Positions 994-15,703 of a stretch of 30,877 bases of DNA are shown one piece after another. Source of the DNA: a virus (lineage: Duplodnaviria > Heunggongvirae > Uroviricota > Caudoviricetes); IMG/VR virus record IMGVR_UViG_2778261069_000012, positions 1 to 30,877 of that record, one strand, 5' to 3'. Within the stretch, counting starts at the first letter, position 1. Each line of letters opens with the position of its first letter. The notes beneath the pieces are model-generated. The model ran no database searches, was not told the DNA's origin, and saw only the letters and a list, made by a program, of their open reading frames with translations. A program made the position numbers and the translations under genes.

Positions 994-1869
994 ATGAATA
1001 CTGTTACTACTATGAATACTGCTACCGTTTCTTTTGATGCTTCTCTGACTGCTACAAAGAAAGAATGGCAAATCGCTAAACCTGCTTCAATGTCTCTGGT
1101 TGTTGATAACACCAAACCGCTTACCATGTCTACTTTGCAGATCGCGCAAATGATGAATCGCGTAGACCGTCATCGTGATATTAAGCGAACTGTTGATCGC
1201 CTTGTTGCTTCTGGTGTAATCGTCCACACGCCAACGGCGCGCGAACAATTAGAGGATAAATTTGGTCGTTCTCGTGAAATTGAAGTTTACCTTCTTGATG
1301 AACGTTCCTCTTACATTGTTGTTGCTCAGATTTCGCCAGAATTTACCGCTTTTATTGTTGATGAATGGAAACGACTGAAAGAAGAAAATGAAAAACTTCG
1401 CTCGACTCCTGTTAATCCATACGAAAACTTCGAAGAAACAGATTGGATTGAACTGGCGTTAGAGAAAACCCGCGAAAATAAACGCCTTGTTGAATTGCAT
1501 GTACGTAAAGCTATCGACACTCACAGCTTAACCCGTCTTCTGGGCGAAAAACGCGGCTCTGTGAAGGTACAAATGATTCTGAAAGGGTTATGTGCTGCTG
1601 GTGTCCTTGAGCGTCGTCTGGATGCTTCTGGTAAGCCTAACGGCTATGATCTGCTGCCTCCTGGCTATATGTTCGCTCGTATGTCGGCACACGGTCAGAT
1701 CGAGTTCACTGCTGATGCTATCCCGCATCTCGTAAAACTCGGATTGCTTGAAGAAGAAAAGGCAGCAACTTTGAAATTGCCACAGCCTAACAACTCACGA
1801 GCAATCGTCAATAATACTGCTTTGCTGATTCGTCAGAATGCTGGATCACTGGAACACTTCGGATTGTAA
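994..1869 (+). CDS. Rha-family phage regulatory protein (antirepressor-like)
   Basis: Residues 45-115 (LTMSTLQIAQMMNRVDRHRDIKRTVDRL ... YLLDERSSYIVVAQISPEF) resemble the Phage_pRha domain from memory; SD AAGGGGA upstream; intrinsic terminator follows. Confidence 0.6.
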   Translation: MNTVTTMNTATVSFDASLTATKKEWQIAKPASMSLVVDNTKPLTMSTLQIAQMMNRVDRHRDIKRTVDRLVASGVIVHTPTAREQLEDKFGRSREIEVYLLDERSSYIVVAQISPEFTAFIVDEWKRLKEENEKLRSTPVNPYENFEETDWIELALEKTRENKRLVELHVRKAIDTHSLTRLLGEKRGSVKVQMILKGLCAAGVLERRLDASGKPNGYDLLPPGYMFARMSAHGQIEFTADAIPHLVKLGLLEEEKAATLKLPQPNNSRAIVNNTALLIRQNAGSLEHFGL

Positions 1870-1877
1870 TAATTTTT

Positions 1878-1903
1878 GCCCCTGAATTTCAGGGGCTTTT
1901 TTG
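1878..1903 (+). terminator. rho-independent terminator after the Rha-like gene
   Basis: GCCCCT / AGGGGC stem, 7-nt loop, then TTTTTT. Confidence 0.7.
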
Positions 1904-1988
1904 TATCTGGAGTTTTTCGCTGAAACCCTGCAATACAGATTTTCGAAATAATCAATGACTTAGAGATGTGCTCAGTTTTGAGCGGATA

Positions 1989-2018
1989 TAAAAAAAGGCC
2001 AACCCCGAAGGATTGGCC
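1989..2018 (-). terminator. rho-independent terminator for the minus-strand cassette
   Basis: GGCCAA / TTGGCC stem with 10-nt loop; the minus-strand transcript follows it with a U-run (A8 on the + strand at 1989-1996). Confidence 0.6.
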
Positions 2019-2025
2019 TAGAGAA

Positions 2026-2256
2026 TCAAATTCCTGTTGCTTCTACCATTTCACCATCAACCTGAACAAAGAATTTCAAATCAACTTTATGGAGTGATTT
2101 GTAGAATTGAGCGATTGAAATACCGTGTTCGCTCAATACTTGTTCTTTTTCGGCTTTACCTTTCGGTGCTTGATAGTACGCTTTTACAATCGCTGCCAGT
2201 TGTTCACGATCAAAACGGCAAGGACGACCGCGAGTAGCTTTAGTAGTCATAGTCAT
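2026..2256 (-). CDS. small basic protein, putative DNA-binding (AT-hook-like RGRP motif)
   Basis: 76-aa ORF; N-terminal TRGRPCRFDREQL and HTH-like EHGISIAQFYKSL; co-oriented with the 200-aa ORF upstream of it. Confidence 0.5.
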   Translation of the reverse strand: MTMTTKATRGRPCRFDREQLAAIVKAYYQAPKGKAEKEQVLSEHGISIAQFYKSLHKVDLKFFVQVDGEMVEATGI

Positions 2257-2284
2257 TTCTCCAAATTAAAGTGAATGTTCACCT

Positions 2285-2887
2285 TTATTTAGAGGACTTA
2301 CATTTTATCGGAAAAAGTTCTCCATCGTCAACCGACATAAAGAACTCTGCCTTAATCCCGTACTTCTTCAACCGTGAATAGTATGTACCCCGACTTATAT
2401 CAACCTTGCGCAGCACTTCGAAGAACTCTTTAGGATCGTTGTAATAATGGCTATATCGCACGTTAGCGAGTTCAACGAACAATTCCCTTGTATCACCATA
2501 CCCTTTCTTGAATGCCTCGTTACGATAGCGTGTAACAGCGTGATTCAATCTCTTCTGTTTCAACACTTCTCGGATCGGCTTCCACTGCAACCTATAGATA
2601 GGACCGTCATCAATGCGATAATAACGCTTGATATCAAAATCAAACCAATCTCGGACTCTCCGAAACTCTGTATGTGATGTTCTATGCTTCTTAAAGAAGT
2701 TGTGAACGTCTGTATAACCATTATCACGGTAAAATTCTATTAAAATCTCTTTCGCTTCCTCACGACTAAAACCGGATGTTGTGTAATCAGTCTTTAAGTG
2801 CTTATGCTTGACTGGCAAACGGTATTCATGATCGGTACAAGACAAGGCTAATTCTAATTCATCTCTTTGTTTCTGATTAATTAGCAT
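2285..2887 (-). CDS. hypothetical basic, aromatic-rich protein with C-terminal HTH-like segment
   Basis: 200-aa ORF; SD AAGGGGG directly upstream on the minus strand; C-terminal [17 protein letters not shown] looks HTH-like; divergent from terL. Confidence 0.55.
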
Positions 2888-2974
2888 ACAACCCCCTTAA
2901 ATCTTAATACCCGTATTTATCAGAAAATCAACAATTTAATAAATACCTTCATATTTCGTAATGAGGGTAATTAC

Positions 2975-4879
2975 ATGAAACTGATTTCTAATAAGGCCAA
3001 ATTAAAAAAGATTCTCAGAAATGCAGCCAAATATATTACGCCACCGCCTAAGCTCCTTCCTTCTGAATGGTGCGAAGCGAATATGGTGCTGGTAGATGGT
3101 CCTCAAGCTGGGGATAAAGTTAAATTGCTGTCATTTCAGAAAGGTATGATTGATGCTCCTTTCCTTGAGAATAAGAAAAAATATGTTCTGATGACCAGTG
3201 CGCAGATCGGAAAGACTACCATCTTGAACGGTATCCTGTTTAACCAGATGGCTAACGATCCATGCAATATGATTATCGGACAATCAACCGCTAAAGAAAT
3301 GTCTCAATATCTCGCTGGTAAGATCCGACCGTCTATCGAAGCATGTGATGCATTAAAAGACGTGGTTACAGACAAGAATGATCGCAATGCTGTTAACAAC
3401 AATAACCAGCTACAGCTAAAAACGAATCACTTCCTATACATGGTATCGCTTACCAGTCCATCAACCCTACGTGGTAAGACCGCAAAGGTTGGATTGCTTG
3501 ACGAAATCGATGCTGCTACAGCCTCAGAAGAAGGTGATCCGGTGGCACTTGCTGCTAACCGTTTAACTACCTTTGGCGATGAAGGTCGATTAGTCGTATC
3601 CAGTACCCCGACCAGTAAGCTCGGAAGCATTAACCAGCAATGGTTATCAAGTGACATGCGTATGTTTTTTGTTCCGTGTCCTCATTGTGGGGAGCATCAA
3701 GTAATCGAGTGGGAAAACGTACAGTTTGAATGGCGTAACATCGATGGCAAGAACTTACCCGATCCTGATACCGCTCGTTATATTTGCCCACACTGTAAGC
3801 AATCATGGACAGAAGGGGAACGAATCAGGGCAGTAGCGCAAGGCGAGTGGAGAGCAACCCGTGAAAGTGAAGTAGCAGGATTCTGGATTAGCCGTCTGTA
3901 TTCACCTTTCAGCACGATCCGCGCTTGTGTGGTTGATTTTAGTCATGCGTGGCAATCCTTTGATTTACAATCATTTTATAACACCGTGTTAGGTAAGGTA
4001 TACGATGATCAGGACACGGCAGTAGAAGCAAATGAACTGGAACAACTCAAAACAGATGTTTCTATCGAGAATATCCCTGATGACGTGATTTTCTTGTGTT
4101 CGGGAATTGACCAGCAATTGGACCGCGCAGAATCTACCATCTTAGGTGTCGCGAAAGATAAGGTTTACATTCTGGATCACCGCAGCTTTTACGATCATAA
4201 CTGTGAACGATATGAATCACCTGTATGGGATAGATTAATCAACTTCCATAAAACCAAATTTACTACTGTATCGGGTGATCGTGTTCCTATGCTCGCCAGC
4301 TTCCTTGATACATCGAACGGTCGATTCACTCAAGCTGGATACCGTATTTGCGGCAAGTGGAAGAACTTACACGCTATCAAAGGTAGTTCTGCTGGTAACG
4401 CTCCGATCATTCCGGTTAAACCTACCCGCACAGGTGGTCATGAATTGCTTATGTTGGGTGTTAACGTGGGTAAAACTGCATTTCGTGAAATGTTGGCTAG
4501 GAACCTGAAAGATAATCCTCATATTGGCTTAGAAATATCAGACACCGTTCCTGATGATTATCTCGATCAGCTTTTAAGTGAATCTGTCAAGCGTACTACT
4601 ACTGGCGTGAGATGGGTAAAGAACCCAGGCGTTAGGAACGAGGCGCTCGACTGCGCCGTGTATGCTACAGCGGCTTCTCGCTACGTCCTTTCAAAAATGT
4701 CATGGGATAAACTCATTGCAATGAAAGACAGCTTAAACCGTGTTGTCGAAGAACCCGTAAAAGCTCCTAAATCGCAATCTAACGAGCAAATCGAAGAAAC
4801 TAAGCCAATCACACGACCGCAACGTCAAAACATCGCCAGACGCCCAAATAGAGGCCGTAGCTGGGTAACATCGTTCTAA
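2975..4879 (+). CDS. terL: terminase large subunit, lambda GpA-like family
   Basis: 634 aa; P-loop-like [10 protein letters not shown] near the N-terminus; CPHCGEHQ ... CPHCKQSW zinc-ribbon pair; position upstream of the portal gene; SD GAGGGTAA. Confidence 0.88.
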
Positions 4880-10821: not shown

Positions 10822-13800
10822 ATGCAGTCGATCCAATTTAAACGAACAAATGTTTCTGGCAAAAAACCAACACCGGAACAATTACAGGTCGGTGAGGTAG
10901 CAATCAACCTTAAAGACCATGTTATTTTCACCAAAGACCGAGATCATGAAGTAGTTCAAATCTCTGTTTCTCCTGAAACTCACGCGGCACTAGAATCTAA
11001 AGTTGATGCTAACAAACAAGAATTGGATAGCACAATTGCAGTAAATGACCGCAATATTCACGCTAAAGTAGATGAAATTAAACAAACTACTGATGCAACC
11101 ATCGCAGCAAATCACGCAGAAATTAACAATAAAGTTGATGTAATTAAACGCGAAACCGACGCGACAATCGAGGCCAATAAAAATAAAGCTGCTTCCGATC
11201 TTGCTGGTGTTAAAGCTGAATTGTCGGATACCATCAACGCTAATAAAAATGCGGCTGCTGTAGCAACTCAGGAACTGGACACCCGCATCAATAAAAAAGT
11301 TGATGATATTAAATCCCGTACCGATGCAACCATCGTAAGCAATCACAAAGCAATCAATGACAAAGTTGATTTGATTAAGGCAGAAACTGACCGCACTATC
11401 GCAGCAAATCACGCCTATGCGGAAAATCAGTTAACTGACACCTACAATAACCTTACTGGTGTGATTGCAGCCAATAAGCAAGAGGCAGCGGATAACGTCG
11501 CAGCATTAACCCGTGATGTTGAAGCCAAAAATACAGCAATTCATAGCAAAGTTGACAATAACAAGTCTTACACTGATTCTGAATTGGCACGCTTAGAAAG
11601 CCGTATTGATGCAGCCGATGGATCAAGTGATGGTAAGTACATCAAAAAGCACGTAAACACTTGCACTGATGGCTATTTGCTGTCTAAGACCGCAAACCCT
11701 TTTGATGATCCGAGTGCTCTTAATCTTGATTACTTTGGTGCATTTCGCATGAATGACCTGGCGGGTCATATTGCAATGATCTTGCATGTTCCGCACCCAT
11801 CCGGCGTTAATCATGCTCGTGGTTTTGAGTTCACTTATGGGTCTAATCCGGTTCATACGGTAAGAACATACGGCTATGATGAATTGGGACATTTGGCATA
11901 TTCTCACCGCATGTATCATGAAGGTGATAAACCTACTCCGGCTGAAATTGGCGCATATTCGAAAGCAGAAATTGACCGCCTGTTCCAGAAGACGCTTAAT
12001 TTTGGGATCGAGGGCGGTTGGTTTAAACTCGGTAGTTTAACACTGCCACAGCAACACGGTCGCACGGCTAAGATTCGTTTAGTGGGTGGTAACGGTTATA
12101 ACGTCGGACAGAATGGACAAGCCAATATTATTGAACTGGTGATCCGTTGCGGCAACAATAGCCCGAAAGGTGTTGTATTCAATGCGTATTATACTATTTG
12201 GTATTATGAACAACATTTTTGTGCAATTCCTACCGATGGTGATAATTACGATCTTTACGCTTACTATGGTGCACATACAGGATTTGTTTTAGCAGAATAT
12301 CAAGTTTCTTCCGGTGGTGTTTCTTTAAACCTGTTGGATACTCCTGAATACCTGGGCGGTGAAAAACCTGTTGCAGATGAAATTTTTGATGCTCTTAACA
12401 TTTCATCGTTCAATAACTTTAGCAACCGTGGAACGTTAAATTTTGGTGGAAACCATCAAGGTCAATATGACATTGAGCATTTGAACGAACAACCGACAAA
12501 TGCTAAAAAGATGTTGCGTCGCTTCCGTAGTTCTGCTCCTGCCACTATCTGGCATGAGACAGTTGATGATAACGCATATCGTCTTGCTACTGGATACGAA
12601 GATACAAATCAGGAATTATTGCTGACAGCAACATCCGGGTTACATGTCAAGAAATTAACATTGGATGGCGGTGTTACTGGAAATTCTGGTATTGATATTC
12701 GTCGAGGACCAAACGAATCAAGTCATTTTAATTTCATGGATTATCGCACTGGACAAGATGTTCGTAATGGTTGGTTTGGTTTTGGTGATGGAACAACCAA
12801 AGATTTTATTTGGTGGAACGATAACGGTCAAAACTCTATAAACCTGATTGAAGATGGTGAATTGCATATTACTGGCGGTAAAGGCCAGAAAATTGTAATG
12901 AATAGCGAAGTTGCATTATCTGAAAATGCTCGTTTGGCTGTTAAAGGTGGCAATTATGGCTTAATTTTTAGAAATGATGGCGTTGGCTTCCATATTCTTA
13001 CCACAGATCTCGGTGATTCATTTGGACCGTGGAATACTCGTAGACCATTCAGCTATAATTTTGCGGACGGTGGATTATATTTAGGTGGTACTGAAACTGC
13101 TCGTTGTTTGCATCTGGGAATTGATGGTAGCACTCGTCTCGAAGACAACCTGTTCTTTAAAGCTGGTTCTCGTCAATCTATGGACTATATGGAACTCGTC
13201 CATTGGGGGGCAAGCAATACAGGTCGAAATAACGTTTTAAGTCTTCGTGACTCAAAAGGATTTTTCGCAGAATTTGAACGATTGGGTGATGATACCATTA
13301 AAAACACCTTCTTCGGGAAACTTAAAGTTAATCGTGGATCTGACGCAATCATCATGAATGCCGAAAGTGGCGATTCGTCTATATATTTGTTGGGTACTTG
13401 TGCTGATAATAACAACTGGTATATCGGTAAAGGTGGTGCTGATAATGGATTAGCGTTCTATAGCTATGCTACTAATGCTGCTATCAATATTACAAACGCG
13501 GGTGATATCGCGCTAAGTCCGAAAGGCGTCGAAATGACTCATGTCAATAACGTTCGGTTCTATGTTCATGGTGAACGTTGGACTGCTAGCCAATCTGGAG
13601 GCTGGGGCGATCAATGGGGATTAGAAGCGCCGATATTTGTCGATCATGGTTATGTTGGACCAGATAGCTATTATCCAATTATTAAAGGAAGAAGTTTAAT
13701 CACCAATCAAGGGTATACAACTGCCGTCGATTTTGGTATGCGTCGTGTTCCTCAAAATTGGGGGCAAGCTATTATTCGTGTTGGATCTGCGGAGGCATCG

Positions 13801-14232
13801 CCAGCGGCTGGTCATCCTCAAGCTGTATTCGAGTTCCATCATGATGGTACTTTCTATTCTCCTGGTAATGGTAACTTTAACGATGTTTATATTCGTTCCG
13901 ATGGTCGTCTGAAAATTAATGTTGAAGATTACGAAGAAAATGCGGTGGATAAGGTAAATAAACTCAAAGTTAAAACCTACGATAAAGTTAAATCTCTTAA
14001 TGACCGAGAAGTTATAGGTCATGAGATTGGTATTATCGCACAGGATTTACAAGAGGTATTACCGGAAGCTGTTAAAACCGCAAAAATTGGTGGTCTTGAT
14101 AACCCAGAAGAAATTTTAACAATTTCAAACTCCGCAGTGAACGCGCTTTTAATTAAAGCGGTCCAAGAAATGAGCGAAGAAAATAAACTTCTTCGTGAAC
14201 GTCTTGCTGCAATTGAAGCTAAATTAGGGTAA
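10822..14232 (+). CDS. tail fiber protein with C-terminal intramolecular chaperone (peptidase S74-like) domain
   Basis: 1136 aa; N-terminal KKPTPEQLQVGEVAINLKDHVIF fiber-type motif; four 22-aa KVDxIKxxTDATIxANH repeats; C-terminal GHEIGIIAQDLQEVLPEAV ... LLIKAVQEMSEENKLL typical of self-cleaving fiber chaperone domains. Confidence 0.85.
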   Translation: MQSIQFKRTNVSGKKPTPEQLQVGEVAINLKDHVIFTKDRDHEVVQISVSPETHAALESKVDANKQELDSTIAVNDRNIHAKVDEIKQTTDATIAANHAEINNKVDVIKRETDATIEANKNKAASDLAGVKAELSDTINANKNAAAVATQELDTRINKKVDDIKSRTDATIVSNHKAINDKVDLIKAETDRTIAANHAYAENQLTDTYNNLTGVIAANKQEAADNVAALTRDVEAKNTAIHSKVDNNKSYTDSELARLESRIDAADGSSDGKYIKKHVNTCTDGYLLSKTANPFDDPSALNLDYFGAFRMNDLAGHIAMILHVPHPSGVNHARGFEFTYGSNPVHTVRTYGYDELGHLAYSHRMYHEGDKPTPAEIGAYSKAEIDRLFQKTLNFGIEGGWFKLGSLTLPQQHGRTAKIRLVGGNGYNVGQNGQANIIELVIRCGNNSPKGVVFNAYYTIWYYEQHFCAIPTDGDNYDLYAYYGAHTGFVLAEYQVSSGGVSLNLLDTPEYLGGEKPVADEIFDALNISSFNNFSNRGTLNFGGNHQGQYDIEHLNEQPTNAKKMLRRFRSSAPATIWHETVDDNAYRLATGYEDTNQELLLTATSGLHVKKLTLDGGVTGNSGIDIRRGPNESSHFNFMDYRTGQDVRNGWFGFGDGTTKDFIWWNDNGQNSINLIEDGELHITGGKGQKIVMNSEVALSENARLAVKGGNYGLIFRNDGVGFHILTTDLGDSFGPWNTRRPFSYNFADGGLYLGGTETARCLHLGIDGSTRLEDNLFFKAGSRQSMDYMELVHWGASNTGRNNVLSLRDSKGFFAEFERLGDDTIKNTFFGKLKVNRGSDAIIMNAESGDSSIYLLGTCADNNNWYIGKGGADNGLAFYSYATNAAINITNAGDIALSPKGVEMTHVNNVRFYVHGERWTASQSGGWGDQWGLEAPIFVDHGYVGPDSYYPIIKGRSLITNQGYTTAVDFGMRRVPQNWGQAIIRVGSAEASPAAGHPQAVFEFHHDGTFYSPGNGNFNDVYIRSDGRLKINVEDYEENAVDKVNKLKVKTYDKVKSLNDREVIGHEIGIIAQDLQEVLPEAVKTAKIGGLDNPEEILTISNSAVNALLIKAVQEMSEENKLLRERLAAIEAKLG
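11065..11430 (+). repeat. in-frame tandem repeats (about 22-aa units) in the tail fiber shaft
   Basis: Four copies of KVD(E/V/D/L)IK(Q/R/S/A)xTD(A/R)TI(A/E/V)(A/S)N(H/K). Confidence 0.6.
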
Positions 14233-14238
14233 TTGGAA

Positions 14239-14258
14239 AGCGGGGAGAAATCTCCGCT
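14239..14258 (+). other. stem-loop with GAAA tetraloop between the fiber gene and the paralog cluster
   Basis: AGCGGGGA-GAAA-TCTCCGCT (8-bp stem, one G.U); no U-tract. Confidence 0.4.
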
Positions 14259-14270
14259 AAGGATTCTTAT

Positions 14271-14567
14271 ATGGGATATTGGGTAAGTAGTGAAATTAAT
14301 ACTAAAATCGATGCTTTAAAATGGCATGTATTTGATATTCCTAACGGCTATGGTACTGCTCGTGCTGGTGTCGCTGTAATGCGTCATAATGCTGGTGGTG
14401 GGTGGTCTGATGCACATATTAACGTAGATGGTTTGACCGTTGCTCGTCGTCGTGGTGGGACCAATTGGGGATCTACTATAAATTCGTTTGTTCCTGCTGG
14501 CTGCACCGTCTCCTTTGGTTTAGGGGGTGAAGGTGGTGTTGAATATTTTAAATTCATGGAGTTTTAA
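14271..14567 (+). CDS. small FDIPNGW-motif protein, paralog 1 of 3 (unknown function)
   Basis: 98 aa; SD AAGGA; shares WxxFDIPNG(W/Y), Gly-rich core and C-terminal TVSF ... YFKF with the two ORFs downstream. Confidence 0.65.
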   Translation: MGYWVSSEINTKIDALKWHVFDIPNGYGTARAGVAVMRHNAGGGWSDAHINVDGLTVARRRGGTNWGSTINSFVPAGCTVSFGLGGEGGVEYFKFMEF

Positions 14568-14569
14568 TT

Positions 14570-14876
14570 ATGGCTGGATGGATAAATCAAAGAATGTCAA
14601 ACGCTATTAGTATTTGGGCTAATGGTGGATATTTTGATATCCCCAACGGCTGGGTTACTGATTCATGCGGAATTGTTTTTGCTCATATGGAAGCCATTAA
14701 CGGTGCTGGTGATCTTGATTCTGAATTGGCTGTAAATGGATTGATTGAATCAGGTCATCATGCTGGTGATACTGGGAGTTGGGGGCGCTAGTTCTTTAGT
14801 TGGCGCTGGTGCTACCGTTAGCTTTACATTGGGTAAAGGTAGTTTGCATTATTTTAAATTCAGGAGAATGCACTAA
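14570..14876 (+). pseudogene. small FDIPNGW-motif protein, paralog 2 of 3, interrupted by a +1 frameshift at a G5 run
   Basis: Frame 2 reads M...GDTGSWGR then stops at 14789-14791; frame 0 continues ASSLVGAGATVSFTLGKGSLHYFKFRRMH to a TAA at 14874-14876, matching the paralog C-termini; the shift maps to GGGGG at 14781-14785. Confidence 0.6.
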
Positions 14877-15178
14877 TGGCATTTTGGGTAGATGGCGCTT
14901 TGGGGAATAGGGCGGGTAAAGCAAATCAAGGATGGTTTGATATTCCTAACGGTTGGACAGCCGACGCTTTCGGGACTATTTCATTCTGTGCTCATTCTTC
15001 CGGTGGTGGCGGTGGTGACTCTGAATTGCTTATTCATGGTTTGTGTGTTTCTGGAAGCCATAAGGGTCATGATTGGGGACAGATTCATTCTTGTATTGCA
15101 CCGCAAGGGGCGGTAATTACCGTTAGCACAAATAGGGGGATCGCTCATCTTCGTTATAGACGTTTGAGCAACCGCTAA
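14876..15178 (+). CDS. small FDIPNGW-motif protein, paralog 3 of 3 (unknown function)
   Basis: 100 aa; SD AGGAGA; ATG overlaps the restored stop of paralog 2 (TAATG). Confidence 0.65.
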   Translation: MAFWVDGALGNRAGKANQGWFDIPNGWTADAFGTISFCAHSSGGGGGDSELLIHGLCVSGSHKGHDWGQIHSCIAPQGAVITVSTNRGIAHLRYRRLSNR

Positions 15179-15232: not shown

Positions 15233-15703
15233 ATGACTACTAAATTTGATATTTTTTCTGGTGGCCTCGTTGGTCTGTTTCTGCATGAAGAAGTAACTAA
15301 CACCGATCTAGACAGTGAAAGCTATCTGGAAATTCCAGAATGTGCGGCTTTCCCGGAAACTGGTGTAGAACGTTCTACTGTCGATGTTCCTAACTTCGGT
15401 GGTCCGTATAACCGTAAGCTGGTTGGTCGTATGTCTGTACCGGATATCGAACTTTCGATCAACTACATGCCGGGTAACGAAGTACACGAAAAACTGATTA
15501 AAGCAACCGAAGACGGTAAGCGCGTACAGATTAAAATTGCTTACTACATCGACGCTACGAAAAAATCTGGTGTACATATCGCTTATAACGGCTTCCTGTC
15601 TAAAACTACCATGACTGGTGGTGAGGATGCTGTAGTAGGCCGTACCTTCACCTTTGTAGTAGATGGTGCTCCGGTTAAACAAGCTGTTTTCCAGAAACTC
15701 TAA
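15233..15703 (+). CDS. major tail (tube) protein candidate
   Basis: 156 aa; directly upstream of the chaperone-position ORFs and tape measure gene; followed by a strong terminator, as expected for a highly expressed structural gene. Confidence 0.6.
   Translation: MTTKFDIFSGGLVGLFLHEEVTNTDLDSESYLEIPECAAFPETGVERSTVDVPNFGGPYNRKLVGRMSVPDIELSINYMPGNEVHEKLIKATEDGKRVQIKIAYYIDATKKSGVHIAYNGFLSKTTMTGGEDAVVGRTFTFVVDGAPVKQAVFQKL

Follow-up and report, generated by a model that had tools for sequence, protein, structure and literature searches.

The host range of T-even-like phages, and of many others, is set by the very end of the fibre. Fibres of the T2/S16 type, which carry an S74 chaperone domain, are normally supplied with an adhesin from a gene of its own (PMC9569957, PMC6851490). 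RB49-type gp37 loses its chaperone domain, and one gp38 monomer then attaches per fibre (PMC9569957). In S16, each of the three attachment helices of gp38 has a tryptophan at its apex, and these residues enter the gp37 trimer at intervals of 120 degrees, in equivalent hydrophobic pockets (PMC6851490). Here we analyse a stretch of 30,877 nucleotides, IMG/VR virus record IMGVR_UViG_2778261069_000012 (the window, taken over its whole length), in which three small open reading frames (ORFs) at positions 14271 to 15178 stand directly behind the gene of an S74-bearing tail fibre. A preliminary description, made from the letters alone, had treated such a fibre as needing nothing further, and the T2/S16 systems just cited argue otherwise. 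We propose that the triplet is a separately encoded knob that caps the processed fibre tip, probably as a 1:1:1 heterotrimer, and is thereby a positional analogue of gp38. We hold this proposal at slightly below even confidence.

The three genes lie on the plus strand. ORF1 (14271..14567) encodes a 98-amino-acid protein, the class-1 paralog, with an acidic C-terminus ending ...YFKFMEF. ORF2 (14570..14876) is the class-2 paralog; it is disrupted in the window, and its intact form has 101 amino acids. ORF3 (14876..15178) encodes the class-3 paralog of 100 amino acids, with a basic C-terminus, ...LRYRRLSNR, and is the most conserved of the triplet. ORF1 and ORF2 are joined by TAA-TT-ATG, ORF2 and ORF3 overlap at TAATG, and Shine-Dalgarno-like sites (AAGGA, GGAG and AGGAG, respectively) stand 8-9 nt upstream of each gene. 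In coordinates, junctions and separate ribosome-binding sites the preliminary description was thus accurate. Its picture of three consecutive ORFs holds for ORF1 and ORF3, which are intact; ORF2, by contrast, is split by an extra G in the run at 14781-14785. The motifs it had noticed also stand up in an alignment: M-x-x-W, FDIPNG(W/Y), a Gly-rich middle and a C-terminal aromatic strand are common to all three proteins. The triplet aligns colinearly, with M1, W4, F21, P24, G26 and G33 invariant and FDIPNG(W/Y) nearly so, and pairwise BLASTP gives E values of 6e-9, 2e-12 and 9e-15 at 24-43% identity. Judged by sequence, ORF1, ORF2 and ORF3 are true paralogs, and strongly diverged ones, as had been said. 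Class 1 ends in an acidic C-terminus (...FMEF) and classes 2 and 3 in a basic one (...RRM, ...RRL), a pattern kept across lineages that could be compatible with a heteromeric interface. By column entropy, the N-terminal helix is the most variable segment (1.79), and the DIPNG loop, the NAFVPAG segment and the C-terminal strand lie at 0.9-1.1.

Divergence between paralogs does not mean rapid evolution of each gene, which the preliminary description had suggested. The ratio of nonsynonymous to synonymous substitution (dN/dS) between orthologues, at dS of 0.3-1.3, is 0.19-0.32 for ORF1, 0.13-0.21 for ORF2 and 0.08-0.15 for ORF3. Such low values (0.08-0.3 overall) indicate real genes under purifying selection. 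ORF1 evolves faster than ORF3, and there has been recombination inside the cassette, the ORF3 of locus L008 being a mosaic.

The proteins belong to no family with a name in Pfam, PHROGs, NCBIfam or PADLOC, in agreement with what had first been stated. No model in these four collections matched them significantly. A Pfam search relaxed to E <= 10 returned no match to C1q (PF00386) or TNF (PF00229), just one sub-threshold unrelated match. A sequence search of the PDB gave no significant chain for the triplet; 6F45 and 9V85 were not among the results, whereas a true gp38 query did return them. PDB matches to designed "Pizza" proteins, at E ~3e-3 over 19 residues, were set aside as spurious. Against 5.8 billion proteins, an indexed search retrieved 39 clusters, none of them named, from E. 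coli, Shigella and Salmonella. A HMMER profile search run exhaustively over 1.84 billion representatives gave just 19 matches at E <= 1e-3, 15 of which are small proteins of 97-129 amino acids. The other four, long proteins matched in multiple stretches (P0048, P0051, P0057 and P0058), were judged spurious; a domain scan of three of them identified an ankyrin-repeat protein (P0048), an Ig-like-domain protein (P0058) and a DUF4347 protein (P0057). A scan of species-representative genomes produced a single 20-residue match, in a Bryobacteraceae metagenome-assembled genome, which is not a family member. The triplet genes are annotated only as "hypothetical protein", and we found no description of them in the literature on gp38/gp37, Krischvirus, KFS-EC, UPWr_E1 or heterotrimeric fibre tips.

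Structure prediction was a check that the preliminary description had suggested. An AlphaFold model of ORF1 made with a 25-sequence family alignment reached a mean predicted local distance difference test score (pLDDT) of 81.7, with a helix at residues 3-15 (55-59) followed by seven strands at ~90. ORF3, modelled separately, has the same architecture at a pLDDT of 80.3. The best structural matches of both modelled paralogs are C1q/TNF trimer domains, mostly homotrimers. Foldseek against predicted viral structures returned phage tail fibre proteins and C1q or collagen-repeat proteins at E of 5e-5 to 1e-3. The predicted helix and jelly roll thus resemble C1q/TNF domains and phage fibre ends; we take this as a likeness at the level of the fold, not as proof of homology.

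The fibre gene itself (10822..14232, plus strand) encodes 1136 amino acids; its assignment is based on the ORF list, Pfam, DNA matches to Krischvirus and Tequatrovirus gp37, and comparison of C-termini. Pfam recognizes Gp34_trimer, a weak gp37_trimer and Peptidase_S74 in it. The Peptidase_S74 core (PF13884, E 5.2e-14, residues 1026-1085) occupies 13897-14076 on the plus strand, so the S74 domain in the preliminary description is real. Together with a coiled-coil tail ending ...ENKLLRERLAAIEAKLG, this core makes up a C-terminal intramolecular chaperone domain at 13897..14229 (plus strand). The motif NDVYIRSD (amino acids 1020-1027; 13879..13902, plus strand) contains the presumed autoproteolysis site, Ser1026|Asp1027. 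We infer cleavage there from the known S74 mechanism, and the motif is kept in all triplet-linked fibres. The fibre is a mosaic, and its distal ~630 codons are 97% identical in nucleotides to gp37 of the T4-like phage KFS-EC. The fibre tip is of the T2/S16 type, normally the partner of gp38.

Triplet and S74 fibre occur together far beyond the window. In every locus examined, the cassette lies directly 3' of a fibre gene that ends in a Peptidase_S74 domain. The tail module was found in 57 of 5426 complete E. coli genomes, 22-28 of which have the triplet. E. coli prophages and IMG/VR contigs carry the cassette, and so do Salmonella prophages, in which gene calling had missed or truncated one triplet copy. 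It stands after gp37 and before the holin region in the T4-like Krischvirus phages G37-3, G2248 and UPWr_E1. In a T7-like podovirus contig, a gp17-type fibre (Phage_T7_tail plus Peptidase_S74) is followed by the triplet and then by a T7-type holin 17.5, and four further metagenomic lineages also have the cassette. Copy number across related phages, another check that had been proposed, is constant: all intact cassettes examined consist of exactly three tightly packed genes, of ~98, 99-130 and 99-110 amino acids, with near-zero spacing. E. coli and Salmonella orthologues comprise one of each class in the same order. We assigned classes with class-specific hidden Markov models built from the enterobacterial members. 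These models recover classes 1, 2 and 3 in order at the T7-like locus; in the metagenomic lineage L019, gene 1 is class 1 and gene 3 is class 3, with gene 2 ambiguous between classes 2 and 3. L032-L035 were scored through three single proteins (P0046, P0050 and P0056) rather than as loci; of these, P0046 (gene 3 of L032) could belong to either class 2 or class 3. Since the order 1-2-3 is kept in a T7-like phage, the triplication is old and each class has been retained, which argues for non-redundant roles.

The boundaries of exchange point to the same partnership. In most E. coli relatives the match to the window does not begin until ~13862, at the cleavage motif. Judging from where the matches begin, the exchanged unit is the chaperone domain plus the triplet, and the cleavage motif is the recombination breakpoint for tip swaps. 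This unit is joined to at least three unrelated mature tips: the T2-like tip of the window, that of G37-3, PK8568, Salmonella and the T7-like phage, and the G2248 type. Over 12343-14538, the window also matches KFS-EC (L002) and G37-3 (L001) along ~2.2 kb of fibre gene, at 97% nucleotide identity to virulent T4-like Krischvirus. Identity this high indicates that temperate phages and strictly lytic ones have recently traded fibre modules, although their morphotypes differ.

Behind the chaperone domain, some loci have the triplet and others gp38, and the chaperone tails differ with it. Fibres followed by gp38 have the C-terminus ...KTPFFTKIARKISKYFKF; where the triplet comes next, enterobacterial fibres terminate in ...ENKLLRERLAAIEAKL(F)G or a coiled coil like it. 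In the prophages ETEC4085 and TO6, which have the window-type backbone, the fibre gene is followed by a ~260-amino-acid "receptor-recognizing protein", a close relative of the PP01 and S16 gp38 adhesins (PDB 9V85, 6F45). Behind this gp38 lies a 70-amino-acid chimeric ORF (L004, 5915-6260, in ETEC4085; L036, 5485-5697, in TO6; also seen as P0036 and P0038), composed of the first codons of a Krischvirus downstream gene (MVYNI...) and the 3' half of ORF3. This scar indicates that a gp38 cassette from a T4-like phage overwrote ORF1, ORF2 and the 5' part of ORF3. In the Krischvirus/Tequatrovirus phages DalCa, MIZ4 and kvi (RB49 species), gp37 is ~80% identical in nucleotides to the window fibre up to 14187, and gp38 follows. 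By comparison of these loci, the cassette slot is the slot of the gp38 adhesin in sister prophages and T4-like phages. The slot is empty in FDAARGOS_946, DEC5A and EC416, and in some members of this prophage family a "pyocin knob" domain is built into the fibre. As a separate observation, the letters YFKF are common to the fibres that precede gp38 (...ISKYFKF; L004, L014-L016), to ORF1 (...EYFKFMEF; window positions 14556-14567) and to ORF2 (...HYFKFRRMH; 14856-14876). The likeness may be chance or may reflect a common contact.

A structural role at the fibre tip, one of several that the preliminary description had raised, is therefore the best reading, given the gp38 slot and the predicted C1q/TNF-like jelly roll of phage fibre ends; a decoration protein or a general host-interaction factor found no specific support. 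We favour a trans-encoded knob because three anciently diverged paralogs form a fixed set, because their conserved translational coupling implies equimolar synthesis, because the triplet is strictly linked to S74-processed fibres and positionally interchangeable with gp38, and because the predicted fold is one from which trimeric knobs are made, the A/B/C heterotrimer of C1q among them. In the proposed mechanism, the fibre would trimerise, aided by the S74 chaperone domain at its C-terminus, and this domain would then excise itself at ...YIRS|D. ORF1, ORF2 and ORF3, one copy each and made in equal amounts through translational coupling, would form a pseudo-threefold heterotrimer on the newly exposed fibre end. 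The heterotrimer would be the distal, receptor-facing tip. Presence in the virion, 1:1:1 stoichiometry, docking to the fibre end and receptor binding are accordingly proposed parts of the model.

Several observations weigh against this proposal. When the triplet alignment was compared with a gp38 alignment by hhalign, the probability was 0.4% over 9 aligned columns, that is, there is no sequence homology. We had considered the triplet as a gp38 homologue on account of its N-terminal "GW" motifs and of "DIPNGWV" against "DTPNEYV"; with this result, gp38 is kept as an analogy. Trp4 is present in each paralog of the E. coli and Salmonella cassettes, at the start of the predicted N-terminal helix, and in distant class-1 and class-3 members it is replaced by L, M, Q, Y or N. 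That helix is also the least confidently modelled part of the proteins (pLDDT 53-60). A universal "three-Trp plug" was consequently rejected, Trp4 not being conserved in distant classes 1 and 3 and the helix being the most variable segment, and it is retained as a lineage-specific possibility. Three E. coli prophages have a T2-like tip and nothing downstream of it. Nor does triplet sequence co-vary with tip type: the triplets of PK8568 and the window are near-identical and their tips unrelated. KFS-EC has a fibre tip 97% identical in nucleotides to that of the window, yet has neither ORF2 nor gp38. As KFS-EC forms plaques with a mere remnant, the cassette is dispensable at least on its laboratory host, if the sequence is correct. 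Finally, ORF2 is frameshifted in the window itself. Beside the question of the helix stands an observation on class 2: in Salmonella (L011-L013) and other lineages, and not in the E. coli versions, class-2 proteins have an N-terminal extension of 15-30 amino acids ending ...R/K-I-P-x-x-G-W, which resembles the VPGW/VPCW motifs preceding the Trp-tipped helices of gp38.

The frameshift bears on a rival explanation, that the cassette of the window has lost its function and is in decay, irrespective of the role of the family in other phages. In its first frame, ORF2 runs from 14570 to 14791 (73 amino acids), with the stop codon TAG at 14789-14791. The remainder, including "TVSF...YFKF", lies in the +1 frame at 14745-14876 and ends with TAA at 14874-14876. 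Direct comparison with E. coli PK8568 traces the lesion to a one-nucleotide insertion in a homopolymer at 14781..14785 (plus strand), five G in the window and four in relatives. Removing one G yields a 101-amino-acid ORF2 protein that differs by 1 residue from the PK8568 orthologue. An intact ORF2, of 99-130 amino acids, is present in all 25+ related loci examined (among them L001, L003, L006-L009 and L022-L031) except for a degenerate remnant in KFS-EC. Programmed frameshifting was rejected, since all other full-length cassettes examined have four G and an open frame; GGGGGC, in addition, is not known as a slippery site. The fifth G is thus an error of sequencing or a mutation that inactivated ORF2 very recently. 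With ORF1 identical and ORF3 near-identical to intact relatives, and the repaired ORF2 one residue off, the lesion must be very recent if it is not a homopolymer sequencing error.

That the frameshift has left the cassette of this one genome an inactive, decaying remnant is a substantial possibility, though somewhat less likely than not. The +1 insertion occurs in none of the relatives examined, and side fibres of prophages are often dispensable, lambda stf being an example. KFS-EC, moreover, is an instance of decay of the cassette on this very fibre background. Its remnant (L002, 6072-6560) is an in-frame ORF1(1-89)::ORF3(48-64) fusion followed by a frameshift, and the deletion, equivalent to 14539-15016 of the window, has the microhomology GGTGGTG at its end-points. 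Against decay in the window speak the sequence of ORF1, ORF3 and the remainder of ORF2, which have hardly departed from those of intact relatives, and the state of the other structural genes of the window that were checked, all of which are intact. We also considered, from the window and KFS-EC together, that the triplet decays whenever it sits on a T2-like tip; UTAK-14, L024 and L029, however, have a T2-like tip and intact triplets.

Alternatively, the three proteins might act separately, as alternative homotrimeric knobs that compete for the fibre end and give each virion fibres of mixed specificity, with a broad host range built in. C1q/TNF-like domains are usually homotrimers, as are most of the fold matches obtained here, and equivalence to the slot of the host-range determinant gp38 would apply equally to such knobs. 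The faster evolution of ORF1 relative to ORF3 and the recombination within the cassette (ORF3 of L008) hint at some independence of the genes. Interchangeable adhesins, however, should differ in number from locus to locus and should be duplicated or lost one at a time, whereas all intact cassettes examined have exactly three genes, in four phage backgrounds, and the class models place one member per class in the set order at the T7-like locus and, for the most part, in L019. The tight translational coupling is conserved as well, and the acidic and basic C-termini of the classes suggest complementary rather than equivalent subunits. We consider three competing homotrimers unlikely.

We regard as comparably improbable a role for the triplet in the infected cell and outside the virion, as non-structural assembly factors that help the tip to fold or release the cleaved trimer of the S74 chaperone. 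S74 domains are self-sufficient intramolecular chaperones in known cases, and the triplet has no similarity to Tfa, T4 gp38 or any other chaperone model: none of the tail-fibre chaperone profiles (Tfa/Caudo_TAP, T4 gp38, gp57A) in Pfam, PHROGs and NCBIfam matched. The preliminary description, which doubted a Tfa-type role, was right in this respect. A jelly roll that matches phage tail fibre proteins is, furthermore, typical of binding or structural modules. The triplet is nevertheless strictly co-inherited with the S74 chaperone domain and not with the mature tip, it does not co-vary with tip type, and KFS-EC can dispense with it, all of which would suit an assembly factor; in T4, moreover, this slot is taken by a gp38 that works as a chaperone and not as an adhesin (PMC6851490). 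That triplet and chaperone domain are inherited together is also explained simply by physical linkage and a recombination hotspot at the conserved cleavage motif.

That the triplet is cargo unrelated to the fibre, a late accessory module for host takeover, anti-defence or exclusion hitch-hiking at a recombination hotspot, is very improbable: although the proteins fall in no recognisable family, the gene-slot arguments are circumstantial, KFS-EC does without the cassette and some prophages lack it, the linkage to S74 fibres holds in every locus examined, across myo-, sipho- and podoviruses in which the other genes nearby (tail tube, holin, second fibre) are unrelated, the sequences contain no signal peptides or transmembrane segments, as an envelope-acting exclusion factor would need, PADLOC gave no match, the fold matches fibre knobs, and triplet and gp38 replace each other reciprocally.

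By its gene content, the window is a prophage of a temperate, siphovirus-like kind. Besides the fibre and the triplet, it has genes for a gpA-type terminase, a lambda-type portal, a protease-capsid fusion, a tail tube, tail assembly chaperones, a tape measure protein, a gpJ-type tip, an M15 endolysin and a large serine recombinase. The tail tube gene (15233..15703, plus strand; weak Pfam TTP matches and RefSeq annotation of relatives) forms the downstream boundary of the cassette and lies outside the exchanged module. A GC-rich stem-loop (14239..14258, plus strand) with an 8 bp stem, a dG of -13.3 kcal/mol and no U-tract separates the stop codon of the fibre gene from ORF1. Its RNA fold has z = -2.0, and 12 of 200 shuffles were equally stable. 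A putative terminator is annotated at the equivalent site in phage G2248; a terminator scan of the window did not call the stem-loop. Lacking a U-tract and folding only marginally better than shuffled sequences, it is at best a candidate terminator. It may serve in transcription attenuation or RNA stabilisation, and the triplet might in consequence be expressed less strongly than the fibre. Related loci differ around the cassette. In L019, a second large fibre-like gene (1375-4083, 902 amino acids) lies directly 3' of the triplet, so that two fibre genes flank the cassette. Among sister prophages, FDAARGOS_946 (L005, 11073-11846), ETEC1703 and 14EC017 included, some have a gene with a NUMOD3 domain (homing-endonuclease-like) between the DUF2163 and DUF6950 tail genes, which the window does not have, and in others IS1, IS4 or IS421 is inserted in the fibre or close to it.

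From gp38 it is already known that an S74-processed fibre can receive its tip protein from a separate gene, and C1q-like knobs are known in cis on phage fibres. What is probably new here is a three-gene, probably heterotrimeric knob made in trans and common to myo-, sipho- and podoviruses. The cassette looks like a third tip option for S74-processed fibres, beside the cis knob and the monomeric gp38 cap. It travels with the chaperone domain among virulent T4-like and T7-like phages and temperate prophages, with up to 97% nucleotide identity between prophage and lytic phage. A bolder generalisation, which we advance with distinct reserve, is that these genes define a previously unrecognised class of adhesin: an obligate 1:1:1 heterotrimer of C1q/TNF-like subunits, supplied in trans, that fits any S74-processed fibre end, is interchangeable with gp38 by recombination and is common to the three morphotypes. 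A heterotrimeric, asymmetric tip on a homotrimeric fibre, if true, would be a new solution to the symmetry mismatch that monomeric gp38 solves. The knob cassette, if confirmed, would also explain host recognition by the Krischvirus phages G37-3, G2248 and UPWr_E1, which have no gp38, provide a portable, compact and swappable module for host-range engineering, and give a bacterial-virus example of a C1q-style heterotrimeric head.

Among known systems, gp38 of T2/S16 (PDB 6F45) is the closest in position. Like the triplet, it is encoded directly after a gp37-type fibre gene with a self-cleaving S74 domain, occupies the same slot and is swapped as a module of chaperone domain plus downstream gene(s). 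Its three Trp-tipped helices are echoed by Trp4 ahead of the predicted helix in the three E. coli/Salmonella triplet proteins. The products differ: gp38 is one ~260-amino-acid monomer with a three-helix bundle, a five-ring beta-helix and a polyglycine-II sandwich, marked in sequence by a conserved N-terminal attachment domain and by glycine-rich motifs that alternate with hypervariable segments, whereas the triplet comprises three ~100-amino-acid proteins, each predicted to be a helix plus jelly roll. The chaperone tails of the fibres differ too, gp38-linked ones ending in ...KYFKF and triplet-linked ones in ...AIEAKLG. In predicted structure, the triplet is best matched by the trimeric knobs of the C1q/TNF type, namely the gC1q A/B/C head, TNF ligands, the C-terminal domain of BclA and C1q-like phage fibre ends, and the C1q head is built from three paralogous chains, as we propose for the triplet. 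Tail-fibre chaperones (lambda Tfa/Mu gpU, T4 gp38 and T4 gp57A) are likewise small genes directly 3' of a fibre gene; unlike them, the triplet has no sequence match to such chaperones, has a predicted jelly roll of the binding type and follows a fibre with its own S74 chaperone. The fibres annotated as "pyocin knob domain-containing S74 family peptidase" share the prophage backbone and S74 processing, with the knob inside the fibre chain and nothing encoded downstream. Their knob is covalent and necessarily homotrimeric, whereas that of the triplet would be non-covalent and made of three different chains.

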